Positions 1,334-52,140 of a stretch of 64,000 bases of DNA are shown piece after piece; within the stretch, counting starts at the first letter, position 1; the number at the start of each line of letters is the position of its first letter. The notes beneath the pieces were generated by a model. The model made no database searches. It was not told the origin of the DNA and saw only the letters and a list, made by a program, of their open reading frames with translations. The stretch spans positions 464 through 64,463 of the forward strand of contig JADFKM010000001.1 in NCBI GenBank assembly GCA_022564935.1, read 5' to 3'. The DNA is from Candidatus Dadabacteria bacterium (GTDB lineage: Bacteria > Desulfobacterota_D > UBA1144 > Nemesobacterales > JADFKM01). The translations under genes and the position numbers were made by a program.

Positions 1334-2392
1334 ATGATCGACAGGATAATAGACCTCTTGAGGGGCCTTAAGGATCATATAGACGCTGCAATTAAGTTGG
1401 CTAAACCCGCCCCGAATGACTTAAATCAGGGGCGTAAAGGGCTAAAAGGGAGCGGGGAGGAGCAGCGCGACCCGAAAAGAAAGCAGATCATCAAGGCGGT
1501 GCGGATGCTCGAGAGCGACCGGCTCGAAACGCGTCTCCTGGGTATAACGGAGCTCGAGGAACTGGCCAGGGATTCAAAAGACCGGCAACGCAGGATAATA
1601 GAGGCCCTTACGGCGTGTGTGAGGAGGAACTCTCCCTGGTATCTATGGAAGTCCTACGTGCAGTCCAAGGACAGCTTGCTCAAGCCCGGCGCCGACATTC
1701 AATCCATACTTGAGATAGTCGCTCACTACAAGCGCAAGTGGAACGGCGACGAGGATTACCCCATCGACCTGAGCAGAACCGACCTGCGCGGGGCCGACCT
1801 CCGCAGGGCGCGCCTTGAGTGGGCGAACCTTCAGGAATCCCATCTCGAGAACGCCGATATGGTGGAGGCCAACCTCCACGGCGCATTCATGGCGAAGACA
1901 AGCATAAAGAAGGTGAGGCTTCCGCTTGCCGAGCTTGCATACGCATTTCTCGAATACGCCAACATGGAGGGAGCCGACCTGAGGAACGCCAACCTCAAGA
2001 ACGCGAGGCTCATAAAGGCCAATCTCAAGTGGGCGAACCTCGGCGCCTTCATCGACCCTGAAGGTCGCATTCACGGGAGCGCCAACCTGGAGGGCGCCAA
2101 CCTGGAGGGCGCGAACCTCCAAAACGCCAACCTCAGCGGCGTCAACATGAGCGGTGCTAACCTGTGGGGGGCGAAGCTCCAGGGGGCCAATTTCGATGCG
2201 GCAATCCTCAAGGACGCCAACCTCTCGTACACGAAGCTCAAGGGGGCGAAGAACCTCACCGCAGAGCAGTTGAGCAAGGTAAAGACACTGTACCTGGCAA
2301 AGCTCGACCCGCAGCTCATGGTCGAGGTGTCTATGAAGGCGCCCCAGCTTCTAGTGCCCACAAACATCTTCGACATGCTCAAAGAGCAGTGA
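1334..2392 (+). CDS. Pentapeptide-repeat protein: N-terminal alpha domain, about 30 A(D/N)LxxA pentapeptide repeats, and a conserved C-terminal tail
   Basis: Repeats such as DLRGADLRRARLEWANLQESHLENADM ... ANLEGANLEGANLQNANLSGVNMSGANL. The C-terminal tail KNLTAEQLSKVKTLYLAKLDPQLMVEV is shared with the next gene. Confidence 0.85.
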   Translation: MIDRIIDLLRGLKDHIDAAIKLAKPAPNDLNQGRKGLKGSGEEQRDPKRKQIIKAVRMLESDRLETRLLGITELEELARDSKDRQRRIIEALTACVRRNSPWYLWKSYVQSKDSLLKPGADIQSILEIVAHYKRKWNGDEDYPIDLSRTDLRGADLRRARLEWANLQESHLENADMVEANLHGAFMAKTSIKKVRLPLAELAYAFLEYANMEGADLRNANLKNARLIKANLKWANLGAFIDPEGRIHGSANLEGANLEGANLQNANLSGVNMSGANLWGAKLQGANFDAAILKDANLSYTKLKGAKNLTAEQLSKVKTLYLAKLDPQLMVEVSMKAPQLLVPTNIFDMLKEQ

Positions 2393-2474
2393 TAAACCCC
2401 TAGTTATTGTTGCATCCCTTTGAAAGTGATACAGGGGAGCAGTATCCTGTTACTTTAAAAATCGCACATCGGAT

Positions 2475-3662
2475 ATGGATAAAGTCTTGTCGAAATTTAA
2501 AGAGAATTTAAGAAGACTTCAACGCTTTATAGGCAATTTATTGCAAAGAGTGTTAGCCGGAGTTGGCTGGGGTATGGACTCCATCAAGGTTTTGTCGGAA
2601 AAATTTTATAAGAAATTAATTTCCATATGGAAAGAAAGTATTGAAGGTCAACTCTTTCTTGTTCCATTACTTTGGAAATATAAGATTCCACTGCTAGAGA
2701 TACTGGCTTTACTTATAATTTCTTCAGTATTATTATGGGGATTTATACTTTTATTGCTGCCCCCCGCCTCCGATGTTTACAACCCGAGAAAGGAAGCCCT
2801 TGAACTTTCTATTAAAATTATCGCAGGTGCTTTATTACTCGTCGGTCTCTATTATGGTTGGCGGCGCATTACAATAGCAGAAGAAGGGCAAATAACGGAG
2901 CGGTTCACTAGGGCTATTGACCAGTTGGGGAAAATTGACAATAAAGGGAAATCAGTTATCGAAGTCCGCCTCGGCGGCATCTACGCACTTGAGCGCATAG
3001 CCCGTGACTCTGAAAAAGACCACTGGCAGATTATGGAAGTTTTGACGGCATATGTTCGTAAAAATGCTCATTGGACTGGCGAGAAGGAAAAAGAGAAAAT
3101 TGACGAAAAGTGGAAGTCTGGGGAATCTAAGGAAGTGGGTGAGCAAGGTGAAAAGAAAGAGCAAAAACCGCGTGAAGATATCCAAGCAATAATAACGGTG
3201 ATAGGTCGTAGAAGTGATGAACGCCGGAAATATGAAAAAGAAAAGGGGTATGTCATTGATTTAAGCAAAACAGACCTTCGGAGAGCCGACCTTAGGAAAG
3301 CAAAACTTGAGGGAGCCAACCTATTTGATGCAAATCTTAAGGGAGCCGACCTAAGAGGAGCAAATCTTGAGAGAGCCAGGCTAATAGGAGCAAATCTAGA
3401 GGGAGCCTGGCTATGGTCATCAAATCTTGAGGGAGCCATCCTAGTGGGAGCAAATCTTGAGGGAGCCGACCTAAAAGGAGCAAATCTAAAGGGGGCAAAT
3501 CTCAAGGGAGCTAAAAAATTAACCACAGAACAGCTTTCAAAGGTGGAAACGCTTTACGAAGCCAAATTAGATAAAGAGCTTATGGAAGAGATAAAGGAAA
3601 AATGTCCGCCTCTTCTGGAAAGACCGGAAGAGGAAATATTTGTGTTCAAGGGAGATCTTTAG
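2475..3662 (+). CDS. Membrane-anchored pentapeptide-repeat protein, a lower-GC paralog of the upstream gene
   Basis: Two predicted TM helices ([23 protein letters not shown] and [17 protein letters not shown]). Shared N-domain motif ([24 protein letters not shown] versus ELARDSKDRQ..ALTACVRRNSPW). A KE-rich linker, pentapeptide repeats ([43 protein letters not shown]) and the same tail [29 protein letters not shown] stop. Confidence 0.85.
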
Positions 3663-12865: not shown

Positions 12866-13910
12866 TTTCATGAATTGTATTATGTTGATAATGAGTAATA
12901 ATTATCTACATAATGGCAATCCGGATCATCGTTAACGGCATTGGAATTCCCAGCCAAATAATGGGGAGCTGCAATGAGCGAGTCGAATGAAGCCTTGATC
13001 GTTGCTCTCAACCCGGATCCCTCCACCCCTAATATTGTAAATGGAATTGAAGAGCTGGTCGATAAACTGGGAGACCTCGTTACGTTTTATAAGTTAGGGA
13101 TTGACTTGCTGGTGAATGAAAAATTTTGGGAAATACTGCCGCTGCTCACCGAGAAGGGGAAGAAGATATTTCTCGATATGAAATCTATTGAAATAGAAGA
13201 AGTCATACGCCGTACCGTGAGGAACGCGGGGCTGCTCAATATAAAATTTCTAACCCTTGATGGGAATAACAGCAATAAAAATATCAGCGCTGCGGTAAGA
13301 GGCAGGGAAGAGTCGGGGAACGGAGTTAAGTTATTGGCATTGACACTGCTGACCAGCATCGATGCACATGATTTCAGCGAGATCTATGGGAGGAAAGCAA
13401 AAGATATCGATGATTTTGTGTTGAGTCGCGCTAAAAGACTGCTTAATGCCGGATGTGACGGGATTATCGCTTCCGGTAGAGAAACGGAGATGTTAAGAGA
13501 GAAATTGAGAGATGAAGTAAAGAAGGATTTCTTAATCGTAACGCCCGGTATTCGCAGGGCGTCGGACAGCAAAGATGATCAAAAGAGGTTCGTCACCCCC
13601 GCGGAGGCCATAATGGCGGGCTCCAATTATCTCGTCGTCGGCAGGCCTATTACCGAATCTGAAGACCCTGAACTGTCTGCCCGGGAAATATTGGACGAGA
13701 TGGATGAGGCTTTTGATAAGAAGAGTAAAAAATTAGAGTCGTTGGAATTTTCACGAATCCAAATCCAGTCGTAATTACTAAGCCTTACAAACCCTGAATT
13801 ACGCGAAAAGCAATATTCAATTCATAAGCTTCAGATTTTAAGAGTCTGTTTCCTATGGACGGGTTATTATGCCAAAGCACCCCTTTCATACTCAAGGGAG
13901 CTTTAATTTA
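12866..13910 (+). mobile_element. About 1.05-kb low-GC insert carrying one gene (OMPDC-like), bracketed by direct repeats of the polA 3' end. Possible integrated cassette or remnant of an integrative element; no integrase present.
   Basis: GC drops from about 60% to about 42-45%. The flanking 32-bp direct repeats are derived from the last codons of polA, and the right copy still encodes GGDWAKAH*. Confidence 0.45.
12974..13774 (+). CDS. Orotidine-5'-phosphate decarboxylase-family protein (PyrF-like, divergent active-site motif)
   Basis: OMPDC-suprafamily landmarks: FYKLGIDLL, FLDMKSIEIEEV (canonical is DxKxxDIpxT; here DxKxxEI), LLALTLLTS, TPGIR and NYLVVGRPI. Low GC relative to neighbours. 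Confidence 0.6.
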   Translation: MSESNEALIVALNPDPSTPNIVNGIEELVDKLGDLVTFYKLGIDLLVNEKFWEILPLLTEKGKKIFLDMKSIEIEEVIRRTVRNAGLLNIKFLTLDGNNSNKNISAAVRGREESGNGVKLLALTLLTSIDAHDFSEIYGRKAKDIDDFVLSRAKRLLNAGCDGIIASGRETEMLREKLRDEVKKDFLIVTPGIRRASDSKDDQKRFVTPAEAIMAGSNYLVVGRPITESEDPELSAREILDEMDEAFDKKSKKLESLEFSRIQIQS

Positions 13911-21621: not shown

Positions 21622-22932
21622 CTATTTGCCTTCGAACGGGTCGGGGATGTCGGGGTGCCACAGACCGAAGTGGTCTTTGTGGTTCTTGGTGTAGGCGCCT
21701 TCGGGGTAGAAGCTGTCGTAGAACTCCAGGTCGATGTGGTGCGCCTGCACCATGAAGCGCAGGAACATCGGGTCGCTGAAGGCCGGGAACCTGCCGTAGG
21801 TGTCGTAGACGTAGCTGCATATGTCCTTTACGACCTGGATCTCATCCTTGCTCGGCCGCTCCACCTCACCGAGTACCGATTCGGGGTTTTTGTAGGGAAG
21901 TTTATGAGTTTCCCAGTTCGTCCATTTGAGGTCGTTCAGGGCCTCGACTGCCTCGCCCATGTCCTTGTAGTAGGGCGGGCAGAACGCTTCGAACAGGCCG
22001 TCCCTTCCCACGGCCACGGGGTTCGGGTTGCCCGTCTCCCCTTTTGTCTGAGGGGTGATGAACCTGAAGCCGAGCCCCTTGTTGAATGGGGTTCCTCCGA
22101 GCATGAACATGCTGGCGAAGCCGCTGAACATCCAGCCGCCCAGGCCGAGGGTCTGGAGCGCTAGGGCCATGTTCTGGCCCATGAATGCCTGCTCCGCGAT
22201 GTAGCCGTTTGCGAACCTTAGCTCGGCCTCTATGAGAGGCATGCGCATCGACTCGTTGACGAACCCCTTCTTCACCCAGGCTTCCGTTCCGGGGTAGCGC
22301 ATGCCGTGAAGCTCGTCCACGAAGTTGAACCTGTGGTCGGGGCGCATGTAGAAGAAGTACAGGTTAATGATGCAGGCCGACAGGTCTGTTACGGGCATGA
22401 ACACGGTGGTGCCGGGCTTGTTCACGTTCCACAGGTTGTGCGAGGCGATGCCGGGGGGCTTCGTGGGCAGGTCGGCGCGGGTGTCTTCGAGCCTGACCTT
22501 CGAATCCCTGAAGAGCTCAAGAATTCGGTCTACCCTCTTCTCGCGGCTAAGCCCTTCGAGTCCCTTGAAGTCATCGGGCTTTTTGTCGTGCTGCTTTATT
22601 AGATAGGTTCCTTCGTCGTTCGTGTAGAACAGCTCCGTGCGGTGCACGTCGCCGAGCGCGGGGATTGTCTTGCTCGTGAACTGCATCTCCAGGTCGAGAC
22701 CCACGTGGGGTGGGAAGTCCGAGAGGTTGATGCTCTTTATTCCCAGGCCCGTCCACACCATCATGGCCTCTTCAAGCTCTGTAAGGGGTACGCTCTCGTG
22801 CCTGGATTTGTACTTGAGCGAGCCTTTGTCGATTTCCATGCCGAGGCCGAACCTCCTGGAGCGCCTCTGGAAAATGGCGTCGTGGAAGCTGTACTCTATA
22901 GCGGTGTTGAGTCCTCTCGGATGGCTGCTCAT
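21622..22932 (-). CDS. Hypothetical 436-aa Trp-rich protein with an N-terminal nitroreductase-like RRSxRxF motif
   Basis: N-terminus HDAIFQRRSRRFGLG is the nitroreductase-superfamily FMN-pocket motif; the rest has no motif I can assign. Its TAG stop is 2 nt from the start of the downstream ghrB-like gene, which implies an operon. Confidence 0.5.
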   Translation of the reverse strand: MSSHPRGLNTAIEYSFHDAIFQRRSRRFGLGMEIDKGSLKYKSRHESVPLTELEEAMMVWTGLGIKSINLSDFPPHVGLDLEMQFTSKTIPALGDVHRTELFYTNDEGTYLIKQHDKKPDDFKGLEGLSREKRVDRILELFRDSKVRLEDTRADLPTKPPGIASHNLWNVNKPGTTVFMPVTDLSACIINLYFFYMRPDHRFNFVDELHGMRYPGTEAWVKKGFVNESMRMPLIEAELRFANGYIAEQAFMGQNMALALQTLGLGGWMFSGFASMFMLGGTPFNKGLGFRFITPQTKGETGNPNPVAVGRDGLFEAFCPPYYKDMGEAVEALNDLKWTNWETHKLPYKNPESVLGEVERPSKDEIQVVKDICSYVYDTYGRFPAFSDPMFLRFMVQAHHIDLEFYDSFYPEGAYTKNHKDHFGLWHPDIPDPFEGK

Positions 22933-23087
22933 TGTGTGCCCCCTTGAATTTGGTTTTTGAGTTTCGCCCGACTGCTAGATTATATCAGGAGGCCGCTGGA
23001 TTGGCACCCCCCGATTGATAATTTCTCGCCCCCGATGGTAGAGTCAACGGACGTGAGCGAGAAACGAGACAGGCTCAAGGAGCGTAG

Positions 23088-23195
23088 GTGCGCAAGGTGA
23101 TTGTGGTCGTGGATAGGGAGGAGGGAGCAGAACAACGCATCCGCGACGAGGGAATAGAGTATTTCTCGATATTCAAAGTGAGCGAGCTGCTTTGA
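23088..23195 (+). pseudogene. pyrE: Orphan 3' fragment of an orotate phosphoribosyltransferase (pyrE) gene, about 35 codons
   Basis: VRKVIVVVDREEGAEQRIRDEGIEYFSIFKVSELL-stop matches the PyrE C-terminus (vlvlvDReeGg...G..l.Sl.tl.dL). An in-frame TAG lies immediately upstream, and the preceding DNA is not PyrE-like. Confidence 0.55.
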
Positions 23196-23289
23196 GTCTC
23201 TTTGCCTGCTAACTACACTCTATCTATAAATTAAATTATAAAATGTTAATATGGTATTAGTTGTTCCAAATTAATGAGGATCAATAAAA

Positions 23290-23655
23290 ATGGCTAATAA
23301 TAAGAAGAAATGCTTTGTAATTTGTCAAATAGGTGAGGACAACTCGGAAGAGAGACAGCATACAGATGATGTTATGGAATATATAATCAAACCCGCCACA
23401 GATGAATGCGGATATGATGCGAAACGTTCCATAGATCTCAAGTTACCGACTACTATTACAAATGAAATAATAATTGAATTGATGGAAGCACCTCTTGTCA
23501 TAGCTGACATATCTGGGAGAAACCCAAACGTTTTCTATGAACTAGCAATAAGGCACTTTGCAAACAAAGCCACAATACAAATTAAAAATAAGTCTGAAGA
23601 CATTCCATTTGATATTAACGACCAAAGCACTATTGATTTATGGATTGCACTCTAG
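23290..23655 (+). CDS. Nucleoside 2-deoxyribosyltransferase-like / SLOG-like Rossmannoid protein
   Basis: KKCFVICQIGEDNSEERQ...APLVIADISGRNPNVFYELAIRHFANKATIQIK fits the NDT-like pattern (ADl.g.dpgt.fElGyA.algKPvi). A GAGGA SD lies 12 nt upstream. Confidence 0.55.
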   Translation: MANNKKKCFVICQIGEDNSEERQHTDDVMEYIIKPATDECGYDAKRSIDLKLPTTITNEIIIELMEAPLVIADISGRNPNVFYELAIRHFANKATIQIKNKSEDIPFDINDQSTIDLWIAL

Positions 23656-24049
23656 GGATGCACAAACAGGTAAAAATAAAATTATAGAACAAATCAAGGA
23701 ATTGGAAAAAAATCCCTCATTGAATAATCCTATAATTGTTGCGCAAAATGTAAAAAAGATCAGGGATAGTGAAAACCCATTAGAAAAAAGTGTTGCAGAA
23801 CTGATGTTAATGCTAGAGAAATTTGGAGCCAGGATTGGCGGTGTAGAGTCAATGCTAAGTATCATGTCTATGGGTAATGTATCGACTAGTGCTGGGATAC
23901 TGGGAAACTTATTTCTACCAAACCCGTATTTAGCAAAAAGTTTTACTTCAGGCACTCTAAAAACCCCTACTAAACTACCTAAGATACTAAAAGTGTTGTC
24001 TGAAATAGAAACAGAAGAGGAACAAAAGAAAAAGAAGAAAGAAAAGTAG
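23558..24049 (+). CDS. Hypothetical 163-aa frame, Lys/Glu-rich at its C-terminus, overlapping the upstream gene by 98 nt in the +1 frame. Possibly the frameshifted C-terminal part of the same gene.
   Basis: A 164-codon open frame in about 32% GC DNA is unlikely by chance. Its only start is a TTG three codons after a stop. Composition (helical, KE-rich tail EEEQKKKKKEK) is protein-like. Confidence 0.4.
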   Translation: MQTKPQYKLKISLKTFHLILTTKALLIYGLHSRDAQTGKNKIIEQIKELEKNPSLNNPIIVAQNVKKIRDSENPLEKSVAELMLMLEKFGARIGGVESMLSIMSMGNVSTSAGILGNLFLPNPYLAKSFTSGTLKTPTKLPKILKVLSEIETEEEQKKKKKEK

Positions 24050-24351
24050 CTTATTAATCGTATGGAAACCTACGAATTAGAAGGGCTACTTATCACGGGT
24101 CGGAGCCGCTTTGATTTTTCTCCCCTTCTTTATGCGGCCGGAACCCTTGACCTTGGGCTTCGCTCCTTTTCCTGCCCTTTAACCATCTAATATGTAAGAA
24201 AGACTCGGCGCAAAAATAGATTGAGTTTTTTTGAGGTGATTCGATATGTCATATGGCAATTCAGATAATAAGGAAGAGAGCTGCCGGTGCGGCTACGTTT
24301 ACCTCTTCGGCCTTCTTGGGATTCAGATAAAGAAGCTCTGGTACAGGTTGT

Positions 24352-25145: not shown

Positions 25146-25802
25146 CTAGTGCTCGTGGGTATGCCCGTTGTTGTTGCCGGTTTCTTCTCCTTCTTCCTCG
25201 CTTGTTTTCTCGGTTTTTTCTTGGGGGGCCTGGTCTGTGGGGATTTTCTCGGAAGGGGGCACAGCCCGCCAGGAAAAGGAGCTTCTGAACTCGGGGTGGT
25301 TGATCTTGCGGCCCGCATCCGCAATCCAGAAAAAGACCCCCAGGCTTCCCATGATGAGAATTAAGGTCAGGACGCCCACGTGAAACTTGAAGCGTCGCAC
25401 TGCAGCTACAGAAAGGATGCCCAGGAGCGCGAGACCCCCCGTTATGTAGATCACGGTGGTCGCCGGATCAGTAAAAAAATGATGCTCTCCCATCCACTTG
25501 TCCCCCTCGGCTCCTATGACCGCAGAAAGTGGGAGCTCCTCGAACCTGTCGTGGGCCTCTTCTCCCGTCTGCATGACGAAGTACATAGATCCTGCGAAAA
25601 TGGCGCACAAGATGAAGCCTAGAAAGAGGACTTCTGTGTCTTTGAGGATGAACGAGTAGATAAGGACGAGCGCGGCGGCGGCGAGCCCTATGATGGGGAT
25701 GTGGTTTATCATGAGGTGGATGTGCTCGGGGGTCGTGAGGAAGTCGAACATCGCATACATTATAAATAAGGCACTTGCGCAGTCAACGCAGGGGTGCTGC
25801 AA
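25146..25802 (-). CDS. Hypothetical membrane protein (4-5 TM) with a His-rich acidic C-terminal tail
   Basis: TM-rich sequence. The C-terminus EKTEKTSEEEGEETGNNNGHTHEH suggests metal binding. Confidence 0.5.
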   Translation of the reverse strand: MQHPCVDCASALFIMYAMFDFLTTPEHIHLMINHIPIIGLAAAALVLIYSFILKDTEVLFLGFILCAIFAGSMYFVMQTGEEAHDRFEELPLSAVIGAEGDKWMGEHHFFTDPATTVIYITGGLALLGILSVAAVRRFKFHVGVLTLILIMGSLGVFFWIADAGRKINHPEFRSSFSWRAVPPSEKIPTDQAPQEKTEKTSEEEGEETGNNNGHTHEH

Positions 25803-50983: not shown

Positions 50984-51301
50984 TTAGAGGTCGGTTTCTG
51001 TTATTTCGAACTTTGTCCTTAGAAACATTATCAGCTCGGTAAGAGCTTCTCTCATAGACAACGTTAGTGCGGTCTTTCCGTACCTTCCCTCTACCACGTA
51101 ATCGAAATCCGCCGTCACGTGGTACTCGGATAGATCCTCTCCCGCGATGGTAGTCGAATCGCTGAGGATCTGATGGTATTGCGTTACAAGCTTATCGGAA
51201 ACGGGAGCGGAATCCTCTGAGGGGAGTGAGTACCGCATCGCCTTAAGCTCCGCGTACCGCACCTTCAATTCGTTCCTCTGTTCTTCAGTCAGCTCCGCCA
51301 T
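50984..51301 (-). CDS. Hypothetical 105-aa protein; paralog of the N-terminal domain of the next gene
   Basis: MAELTEEQRNELKVRYAELKA...LP...VS..V..Y..L aligns collinearly with residues 1-105 of the 240-aa neighbour. The same promoter-like repeat (AATCTATAATAGCATA) lies 55-75 nt upstream. Confidence 0.6.
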   Translation of the reverse strand: MAELTEEQRNELKVRYAELKAMRYSLPSEDSAPVSDKLVTQYHQILSDSTTIAGEDLSEYHVTADFDYVVEGRYGKTALTLSMREALTELIMFLRTKFEITETDL

Positions 51302-51355
51302 GGTTAGCCCCCTGCATAATGCTTTACATCGGTTATCTATATTGAGTTCCCGCTT

Positions 51356-51377
51356 CGAATCTATAATAGCATAGAAG
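51356..51377 (-). promoter_or_regulatory. Promoter-like repeat copy 1 (CGAATCTATAATAGCATAGAAG)
   Basis: Same 17/21-nt element and same spacing (about 55 nt) upstream of both paralogous ATGs; contains a TATAAT-like hexamer. Confidence 0.45.
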
Positions 51378-51417
51378 ATGTGAAAACAGAGTAAAAGTGT
51401 GTCAGAATTTTATCGTC

Positions 51418-52140
51418 TTATTTACTTTCCCTCACCTTAGTTTCATTCAAAATATCCAGTAGTATGTCAATAAAAGCCAGTATTTTCATTGCATCCTCTC
51501 TGGAAAACTGGTCTGAGAGCTTGTGATGGGTTTCGCCTCTAAAACTTAACATCGTACCCCTATAAAGCTGGTAAAAACCTTCTTGTTCGGATGGGGTACC
51601 ATCTATAACTAGTAAGCCCCTTGTATTATGAAGAACTGTGTTAACTAATTTTACTCCCACCTCTGTTAAGTCAGGGTCTGCTAAATTTCTAATTCTGTGT
51701 TCTAATATGGTGGTTGCTTCTCGTATTACTCTGTCAAAATTTTCTTGGGCTGATAAAAGGTCGATGCATCTTTCCTTTAACTCATTATCCTTGATTATCT
51801 TAATGATATTTCCTATTCCAACAATTGGTTTACTTTCTACTGATTCGAATTCTATGTTAATCAGTGCAATTAGTTGTCTAAGAATCGATTTAAATGATAG
51901 ATTAAAATAACGTCTAACAAGTTTTCTTCCAGTGGTGTATTCAGCATCTGGTTTAATTTTGAATTGTGAGAAATCTTTCTCAGATACACTTTCCAAATCT
52001 TTAAGAAGTCTAAAATAGCTATTAACGATTTGGTTAGATACCATTTCGGTTTCTTTTTGGGGCAGTGTGTCATCTATTGCTCTTAGCTGAGCAAATATAA
52101 TTTTTAATTTTTTGTGCTGCTCTTCAGACAACTCTGCCAT
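51418..52140 (-). CDS. Low-GC gene: N-terminal domain shared with the upstream paralog plus a C-terminal HEPN/Ymh (TIGR02391-like) domain. Abi- or toxin-like.
   Basis: MAELSEEQHKKLKIIFAQLRA... N-domain. The C-terminus (VIREATTILEHRIRNLA...GVKLVNTVLH...EQEGFYQLYRGTMLSFRGETHHK...DAMKILAFIDILLDIL) has the HEPN Rx4-6H motif (RGETHH) in Ymh-like context. A GCGCATATGCGC palindrome lies upstream. Confidence 0.6.
   Translation of the reverse strand: MAELSEEQHKKLKIIFAQLRAIDDTLPQKETEMVSNQIVNSYFRLLKDLESVSEKDFSQFKIKPDAEYTTGRKLVRRYFNLSFKSILRQLIALINIEFESVESKPIVGIGNIIKIIKDNELKERCIDLLSAQENFDRVIREATTILEHRIRNLADPDLTEVGVKLVNTVLHNTRGLLVIDGTPSEQEGFYQLYRGTMLSFRGETHHKLSDQFSREDAMKILAFIDILLDILNETKVRESK

Follow-up and report, generated by a model that had tools for sequence, protein, structure and literature searches.

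A low-GC islet of a Candidatus Dadabacteria genome probably holds a decaying, horizontally acquired member of a widespread NDT/TIR-class protein family

The 64,000-nt stretch of Candidatus Dadabacteria DNA analysed here (contig JADFKM010000001.1 of assembly GCA_022564935.1; referred to as the window) is interrupted by a short islet of low GC content that carries two overlapping open reading frames (ORFs), named ORF A and ORF B (Table 1). The GC content drops from 0.54-0.61 over positions 22000-23100 to 0.31-0.39 from around 23150 to 24100, and the islet averages 34.2% over 23190-24100 compared to 54% for the whole 64-kb window and around 58% for the flanks. This profile agrees with the abrupt drop over about 0.9 kb described in the original prediction for this DNA, though of the interval proposed there (23088-24060) only the low-GC islet itself stands, since the first ca. 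110 nt (23088-23195) are the normal-GC 3' remnant of a deleted pyrE-like gene. ORF A carries ADISGRNPNVFYELAIRHF and is deposited in GenBank as hypothetical protein MCH8028324.1 of a Candidatus Dadabacteria metagenome-assembled genome (MAG). ORF B, which starts at a TTG that is the third codon after a stop, is represented there by the 146-aa hypothetical protein MCH8028325.1. None of 5000 shuffles of the islet contained an open run of at least 164 codons (analytic probability ~1e-6 per frame), in line with the earlier assessment that a second open frame of this length, overlapping the first, is improbable by chance.

The two frames belong to a single gene. When both were fused by deletion of one base and the product was searched against a collection of 5.8 billion proteins, we obtained 359 homologs, every one of them a single protein of ~235-300 aa that is uninterrupted over the junction (35-50% identity, coverage up to 98%). 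Similarly, the fused product aligns without a break across the junction in an alignment of 25 sequences, and its match to the PADLOC profile PDLC00733 covers residues 6-145 and thus spans the break. The clearest proof comes from a family-conserved SENPLEKS motif (alignment columns ~240-260), which lies 3' of the break and is encoded in the +1 frame only, so that ORF B continues the gene begun by ORF A. From ~23640 on, ORF B encodes the rest of ORF A's protein, i.e., the last helix of the catalytic domain, a helical hairpin, and the tail, while the codons 5' of this position are an overlap that is open by chance. The reconstructed protein is composed of an N-terminal domain resembling N-glycosidases of the nucleoside 2-deoxyribosyltransferase (NDT)/TIR fold (aa 1-140), a conserved helical hairpin up to ~aa 175, and a variable helical tail. 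The suggestion that one gene of about 250 aa had been split by a frameshift, which was to be judged by whether homologs are single fused proteins, is therefore well supported, and the two hypothetical proteins in GenBank should be one pseudogene.

Alternatively, the locus could encode two functional proteins that work as a split pair, with ORF A as a truncated catalytic domain and ORF B as a coiled-coil protein of its own, translated from an internal TTG or ATG start. GenBank and other gene callers indeed annotate two proteins, both frames are still open, and ORF A retains five strands and every invariant residue. However, all 226 relatives extend beyond the equivalent of residue 140, the shortest of them to residue 152, which leaves a natural stop at residue 121 without precedent and the notion of a tightly overlapped gene pair without parallel in the family. 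The split would also remove a confidently modelled domain helix (residues 121-140 in the secondary structure of the AlphaFold2 model described below), and ORF B has TTG starts only, without an ATG start or an evident ribosome-binding site. Strain polymorphisms in ORF B are all non-synonymous, and a split architecture was seen nowhere else among genomic and viral homologs. We consider such a pair of functional genes improbable.

Table 1. Coordinates of features at and around the low-GC islet (positions in the window)
Feature	Coordinates	Strand	Description
pyrE remnant	23053..23195	+	Codons 1-9 abut codons ~143-183 in a different frame; ~130 middle codons deleted; name read from the sequence
Low-GC islet	23190..24100	.	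34% GC, foreign; bordered by the pyrE remnant and by the 3' end of a gene of the metallo-beta-lactamase fold
ORF A	23290..23655	+	ATG start, 121 aa; encodes catalytic-domain strands b1-b5 and ends with 5 out-of-frame codons before TAG
Reconstructed pseudogene	23290..24049	+	~252 codons after removal of one base
NPNVFYEL motif	23521..23544	+	GAA at 23539-23541 encodes E84, the predicted catalytic Glu
ORF B	23558..24049	+	+1 frame, 163 aa and stop; 98-nt overlap with ORF A
Frameshift interval	23631..23655	+	Must hold the +1-nt shift; from a scan of single-base deletions
SENPLEKS motif	23768..23791	+	Family-conserved; 3' of the break, in the +1 frame only

Within the interval that must contain the shift (Table 1), the most parsimonious lesion, whose exact placement we infer, is most likely one extra T in the TTT at 23637-23639 (GATT[T]ATGG). 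Removal of one T from this run yields ...STIDYGLHSRDA..., which mirrors ...RTIQYDLDLES... of a homolog (P0001), with TIDYG-LHSRD at the junction facing TIQYD-LDLES. Four other assemblies (ENA ERZ27267525, ENA ERZ23498787, Logan SRR12886460, and NCBI GCA_965367475.1), with 99.7-99.9% identity to the window, encode precisely the same 121-aa ORF A. Three of them match the islet DNA without any difference, while the islet of GCA_965367475.1 differs by 3 single-nucleotide polymorphisms (SNPs; 23903, 23952, and 24000) and keeps the same frameshift. Because the frameshift is shared even by this SNP-distinct haplotype, an error specific to one assembly is ruled out and, judging from assembled consensus sequences, the frameshift is genuine and fixed in this Candidatus Dadabacteria lineage.

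We therefore regard it as very unlikely that the organism's gene is intact and the extra T a mere consensus error of sequencing or assembly. One-base indels in A/T-rich DNA are indeed a frequent assembly error, and a full-length protein with every invariant residue is regained once a single base is taken out. Yet four other records, produced by different assemblers (megahit-style k141 contigs, a scaffold assembly, Logan, and an NCBI MAG), show the same frameshift, and one of them is a separate consensus with its 3 islet SNPs. Moreover, the T run is merely three long, the copy shows independent signs of decay, and the neighbouring pyrE-like gene is deleted.

The possibility of a programmed +1 ribosomal frameshift, another kind of recoding, or a phase switch that keeps a toxic full-length effector at low levels is even more remote. 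It would fit the +1 direction of the needed shift, the tight regulation under which toxic effectors often stand, and the location of every invariant catalytic residue 5' of the shift. However, only 2 of 80 genomic homologs and none of the viral ones with a called ORF are interrupted, no conserved frameshift site was found in close relatives, and the break cuts a folded domain between b5 and the last helix. By inspection, 23631-23657 holds no known +1 slippery context (a P-site CUC before UAG cannot re-pair in +1) and no prfB-like CUU-UGA-C with upstream Shine-Dalgarno sequence. In the two other broken copies, the lesions are nonsense codons (TAA and TGA) at positions unrelated to that of the shift. 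Both the sequencing indel and the programmed frameshift, which the original prediction had left standing beside a real one, are thus disfavoured by a shift that recurs in four other assemblies, by unshifted homologs, and by nonsense mutations elsewhere in the other broken copies.

These two copies are worth describing in their own right. A Methanobacteriaceae MAG encodes two tandem family paralogs (L104:10001-12980), the first of which is broken by an in-frame TAA, and a Desulfobacterales member (L114) is interrupted elsewhere by an in-frame TGA. Mutations that disable the gene recur sporadically across the family.

The called genes around the islet are of housekeeping type and encode KsgA, a GGDEF protein, DivIC, hydrolases of the metallo-beta-lactamase (MBL) fold, an acylphosphatase, a 2-hydroxyacid dehydrogenase, and a 436-aa protein, so these surroundings are no defence island. 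The 436-aa protein (gene at 21622-22932, minus strand) is highly conserved but has no Pfam match, and we used it as a synteny anchor, retrieving 69 metagenomic loci that encode it at 57-86% identity and in which it is mostly followed by a 2-hydroxyacid dehydrogenase gene. The NDT-like gene is missing from all 69 of these relatives. As expected from the original prediction, the tRNA scan, the repeat search, and the gene tables revealed no mobility features: there is no tRNA and no Rfam match across the 64-kb window, no integrase among the called neighbours of the islet, and no flanking repeat or att site beyond 10-15-nt matches consistent with chance. The further idea that the islet is a remnant of a larger island found no support, since no such island is evident around it and family relatives are typically lone-gene insertions without a partner. 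Neither a plus-strand promoter-like site immediately 5' of ORF A nor a terminator at the islet was detected with consensus patterns, which may not fit Dadabacteria.

On its 5' side the islet is bordered by the remnant of a putative pyrE (orotate phosphoribosyltransferase-like) gene, a name that we gave from reading the sequence rather than from a database match. Intact genes of 183 aa are present in two syntenic relatives (L068:4985-5536 and L022:979-1530), and in L068 the complete gene lies divergent beside the gene for the 436-aa protein. In tblastn searches with these two proteins, residues 143/144-183 matched 23070/23076-23192 (E ~1e-10) and residues 1-9 matched 23053-23079, so that the 35-codon ORF at 23088-23195 is part of the remnant. 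No other pyrE-like match exists in the 64-kb window. The low GC content of pyrF (OMP, i.e., orotidine 5'-monophosphate, decarboxylase; PF00215, E 2e-34) at 12974-13774, 44% compared to ~60% for its neighbours, is odd for a core pyrimidine gene given the deleted pyrE at 23053-23195.

Other relatives carry different cargo between the pyrE-like gene and the gene for the 436-aa protein, at sites syntenic to window positions 22933-23290. One of them encodes a 598-aa protein with a SIR2_2 domain (L015:3482-5278), and two others have small ORFs that are, by eye, MazF/PemK-like and toxin-antitoxin-like (L013:4267-4599 and L021:4165-4720). This suggests that the gap is a lineage-wide hotspot for defence or toxin-antitoxin genes, and the differing cargo together with the deletion of the pyrE-like gene places the islet in a variable, decaying spot. 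The locus thus displays turnover of defence-type cargo, with a SIR2-like gene and others in relatives and a decaying gene here. Exact insertion boundaries are undefinable because none of the 69 relatives has an intact copy and synteny is not conserved on the side of the MBL-fold gene. Nevertheless, the GC content of 34% against flanks of ~58%, the lack of the gene in all syntenic relatives, and the variable cargo at the same site identify the islet as foreign DNA that was horizontally acquired.

The protein encoded by the reconstructed gene is itself unusual for the family. It departs from the consensus at 10 of the 49 positions that are at least 85% conserved in other members, a count that has a median of 1 in the family and is reached by no more than 7 of 120 members. 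Among the substitutions are G54T at a position that is 100% conserved in the others, P13Q (98%), R113S (97%), and D48I (96%), while the invariant core (R22, R46, D73, N78, N80, E84, R88, F107, and D108) is kept. Read in the frame of ORF B, each of the strain SNPs (three of three) is non-synonymous. Based on the frameshift inside the catalytic domain, the departures from consensus, and the internal deletion of the adjacent pyrE-like gene, we are fairly confident that the islet represents one horizontally acquired gene that was inactivated and is now a decaying pseudogene in a variable site. The copy in the window is most likely non-functional and inert.

Some observations point the other way. 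The other assemblies may partly share one sequencing run, which leaves their independence resting mainly on the one SNP-distinct record. The ten departures from consensus could mark a divergent subfamily that was once functional, as 7 of 120 intact members deviate equally, and three non-synonymous SNPs out of three carry no statistical significance. With its invariant catalytic residues intact in ORF A, the gene may have suffered the frameshift recently, or the truncated product may keep some role. As a dead acquired gene the locus has little weight by itself, and its interest lies more in the family to which it belongs, a very large and widespread one of NDT/TIR class that lacks a curated domain model.

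To characterise the encoded fold, we built an AlphaFold2 model on the family alignment. It has an overall predicted local distance difference test score (pLDDT) of 80, with values above 90 for residues 1-140 (for most block means), and displays a five-stranded, three-layer alpha/beta Rossmannoid domain (parallel strands 6-11, 42-46, 69-73, 95-100, and 114-117, with helices between) followed by long helices. In Foldseek searches of the PDB the first match was Chroococcidiopsis NDT (9emx/8pqr, E 5e-6), followed by MilB (4ohb), T. brucei NDT, DNPH1 (8rpt), and BcmB (4jen). Matches to TIR domains of SPARTA (8spo/8i87), TIR-STING (7un8/9lmq), and SARM1 (6o0u) were weaker (E 3e-4 to 1e-3). Nothing usable was obtained when ORF A, ORF B, and their fusion product were scanned with Pfam and NCBIfam, and no model exists for the family in these collections. 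The protein encoded in the window does not match PF05014 at E<=1, and the best family members reach 21.2 and 18 bits against a gathering threshold of 28.8. Likewise, the TIR and TIR-like Pfam models PF01582, PF13676, PF08937, PF10137, and PF13271 match neither the window protein at E<=1 nor any of 25 members at E<=0.05. The PADLOC "Effector/TIR" profile PDLC00733 was matched by 25 of 25 members tested, down to E 6e-17. TIR and NDT domains belong to the same fold class [PMC9503650], and fold alone therefore cannot part the two. We conclude that the N-terminal domain, as modelled, belongs to the N-glycosidase fold of NDT/DNPH1 and TIR proteins, with an activity that is predicted. Of the initial assignment as an NDT/SLOG-like Rossmannoid protein, the NDT part is upheld by the AlphaFold2/Foldseek results and by a profile match to DNPH1/Rcl, while SLOG/LOG domains appeared neither in the Pfam results nor among the top 50 PDB or viral fold matches.

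This profile match was obtained with an alignment of the catalytic domain only. A full-length profile had produced coiled-coil noise from the tail only when compared to PDB sequences, which was cured by trimming to the domain, and the profile of 35 diverse members then matched DNPH1/Rcl by sequence (E 0.0014-0.03). In this alignment, ADLtgrNpNVFYELairh faces AEVTQPSLGVGYELGRAV and E84 falls on the Glu of YELG (GVGYELGRA) in Rcl/DNPH1, which we take to be the catalytic nucleophile and the counterpart of E84. Residues N78, N80, V81, Y83, and E84 are invariant in the family, with E84 at the beginning of the helix that follows strand 3, and a catalytic role of E84 is consistent with the E88Q and E88A mutants among the C. 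thermalis NDT entries matched. The Asp of the Rcl HEQD motif, a second acidic residue that positions the deoxyribose and is mutated in several PDB entries, falls on a hydrophobic column of the family (I60 in the window protein), a tentative placement given that the alignment is short and low-scoring. The active site is thus no simple copy of DNPH1, and without an Asp of this type the chemistry and substrate, as far as can be read from the sequence, may differ from those of known NDT enzymes.

An exhaustive HMMER search of 1.84 billion representatives (clusters at 50% identity) recovered 18,525 representative clusters of the family at E<=1e-10 and 4,973 at E<=1e-30. In a scan of one genome per species we found at least 585 confirmed matches that are distributed over many bacterial and archaeal phyla. 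The GC content of the gene was below that of its flanks in 73 of 77 loci (median difference -8 points, with 19 loci below -15), and the low-GC islet of the window is thus a trait of the family. Clustering of the +/-3 neighbours in 78 loci revealed no conserved partner gene and no neighbour family in more than 3 of them. The sole recurrent neighbour, a ThsB-like TIR protein, was found by clustering in 3 of these 78 loci, and Pfam and PADLOC confirmed it to be ThsB in 2 of the 3. The other neighbours of family members are mainly unrelated housekeeping genes, next to a few from defence systems or mobile elements (a type II restriction endonuclease, a type I S subunit, LmuB, SLATT, a pPIWI-associated nuclease, and resolvases).

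Single-gene insertions occur between metabolic genes (L001) or beside toxin-antitoxin genes (L003 and L005). At the latter locus, in a Methanotrichaceae MAG (L005:6154-11717), the family gene, a ParE-toxin gene, and small ORFs lie amid adenine-deaminase-like ORFs, two upstream and one downstream, which suggests an insertion into, or a duplication around, an adenine-deaminase-like gene. Several members have the catalytic domain in other architectures. In proteins of 383-409 aa, which share the layout of the PADLOC model, it is preceded by ~230 N-terminal residues that resemble a winged-helix module by eye. A Vibrio plasmid form has a C-terminal TPR-S sensor and is flanked by two TIR genes and a SLATT gene, and other fusions contain an integrase-family domain (PF00589) or a weak winged-helix-like region.

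The family is also common on mobile elements. IMG/VR contains 189 stretches that match the family. We retrieved 80 of these loci, which group into 28 protein clusters and have neighbours that are mainly CI-like repressors and other transcriptional regulators besides integrases and invertases. Among deposited phages, in which the gene is always annotated as "hypothetical", it is carried by S. aureus phages SA13 (gp16), P630, and SAP-26, by Enterococcus phage phiEf11, and by Streptococcus prophages 315.2 (S. pyogenes), SM1 (gp11), the Javan series, and IPP. Well-studied temperate phages of S. aureus, S. pyogenes, S. pneumoniae, and E. faecalis thus carry the family in their lysogeny modules. The copy of prophage 315.2 is flanked by the repressor/integrase and cro and shares the strand of the repressor, and that of phage SA13 is a lone opposite-strand gene of the early region, positions that are typical of prophage-expressed genes benefiting the lysogen. 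Two published candidates for a relationship to the family were considered and set aside. Pdp_Sau, a potential staphylococcal prophage homolog, is described as membrane-anchored [PMC10127798], in contrast to the soluble domain and helices of the AlphaFold2 model. The "distinct TIR of Firmicute phages with SLATT neighbours" [PMC9503650] could not be equated with this family, in which SLATT genes lie beside only one genomic and one plasmid member.

That the family would instead comprise housekeeping enzymes of nucleotide salvage, i.e., true nucleoside 2-deoxyribosyltransferases or DNPH1 orthologues with a low GC content by chance, is hardly credible. The top structural and sequence matches are indeed NDT and DNPH1, and one homolog is labelled "nucleoside 2-deoxyribosyltransferase" by JGI. 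However, the family stays under the threshold of PF05014 (best 21 bits vs 28.8), has an extra helical tail that is missing in NDT and DNPH1, and is hydrophobic at the position of the sugar-binding Asp of DNPH1. Its genomic behaviour fits salvage no better, with absence from all 69 syntenic relatives of the window, a patchy distribution over phyla, a GC content mostly below that of the host, and frequent carriage on prophages and plasmids.

Three other features of the window merit a brief description. A second low-GC patch (~40% GC) at 50984-52140 encodes a protein of 240 aa whose C-terminal domain, Hypoth_Ymh (PF09509, E 2e-16), we take to be HEPN-like. It adjoins a 105-aa ORF with a paralogous N-terminus (MAELTEEQ.../MAELSEEQ...), and the patch may be another foreign islet of conflict type with a duplicated or truncated copy. 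At 1334-3662, two adjacent pentapeptide-repeat proteins of 352 and 395 aa share related helical N-terminal regions and are encoded in DNA of lowered GC content (47-50%). Within the gene of a 218-aa membrane protein (25146-25802, minus strand), an in-frame, length-preserving block of 20 bp at 25460-25479 differs completely between the window (TCGCCGGATCAGTAAAAAAA) and the four other assemblies (AGCCTGACTCTGCCCGGTCG). It changes ...HHDRAESGSTV... to ...HHFFTDPATTV... without being an inversion, and may be due to strain mosaicism or an artefact.

With regard to function, we lean slightly towards the idea that intact family members act as stand-alone, single-protein effectors of abortive infection or superinfection exclusion by analogy to known systems. 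This proposal builds on the fold with its conserved Glu, on the modularity of the architectures, on a distribution that is mobile and patchy, and on the placement in lysogeny modules. The variable tail or a fused sensor would detect a component of the invader, and this sensing would drive oligomerisation via the helical region and thereby switch on the N-glycosidase head. The head, with the equivalent of E84 as its catalytic Glu, would then cleave the N-glycosidic bond of nicotinamide adenine dinucleotide (NAD+) or another nucleotide, the depletion of which would stop phage growth. It is conceivable, though we would sooner expect otherwise, that the intact members form an undescribed kind of stand-alone defence with a head of the NDT clan (rather than a canonical TIR) and a helical oligomerisation/sensor tail, through which lysogens and plasmid hosts abort infection by attacking a nucleotide that need not be NAD+. 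The link of such domains to phage defence and conflict put forward in the original prediction is backed circumstantially by the phage and plasmid settings, while defence neighbours are few and the surroundings in the window are of housekeeping type. Weighing against a defence function are both its circumstantial basis and the finding that a minority of 133 immediate neighbours in cellular genomes matched defence models.

Among known systems, the only curated profile that recognises the family is PADLOC PDLC00733, via the C-terminal 140 positions of the model. This model of ~388 aa has ~240 N-terminal residues that are missing in the family of the window, which features a C-terminal helical tail instead. 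Going by PADLOC naming, PDLC00733 would be a model for the cyclic oligonucleotide-based antiphage signaling system (CBASS); no CD-NTase gene lies among the neighbours of the islet (the pyrE remnant and the genes for the 436-aa and MBL-fold proteins), and no SMODS/CD-NTase was seen among the 25 most frequent neighbour families shown. Thoeris ThsB (TIR-like, PF08937) is likewise a small Rossmannoid protein of N-glycosidase class, but the family lacks a conserved ThsA-type partner, does not match the models for ThsB, and has a helical tail. NDT and DNPH1 share the same Rossmannoid fold as the best structural matches, and their strand-3/loop/helix motif aligns with that of the family so that the Glu falls on the Glu of YELG. 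The family differs from them in its NPNVFYEL loop and the conserved arginines R22, R46, and R88, in the lack of conservation of the second catalytic/sugar-binding Asp of DNPH1, in the added helical hairpin and variable tail, and in its mobile rather than housekeeping genomic behaviour.

The closest parallels in terms of biology are two single-protein defences of TIR type for which there is experimental support. SpbK of ICEBs1 binds the phage portal protein, which results in NAD+ depletion and abortive infection [PMC11984713], and the NADase Swarozyc/DUF4062 is also triggered by a phage portal [bioRxiv 10.64898/2026.05.01.722283]. Similar to these systems, the family is encoded by one gene on mobile elements, combines a predicted N-glycosidase domain that has a conserved Glu with a non-catalytic region, and is patchily distributed through spread by horizontal gene transfer. 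It differs from both in not matching Pfam models of TIR or DUF4062 and from SpbK in the order of its parts, since the sensor of SpbK is located at the N-terminus. If the family does consist of abortive-infection effectors, it would place a relative from the NDT clan next to SpbK and Swarozyc, the single-protein TIR NADase defences. Were it an undescribed stand-alone defence as outlined above, the Dadabacteria copy would have been disabled recently, in keeping with the cost that such a toxin imposes on its carrier.

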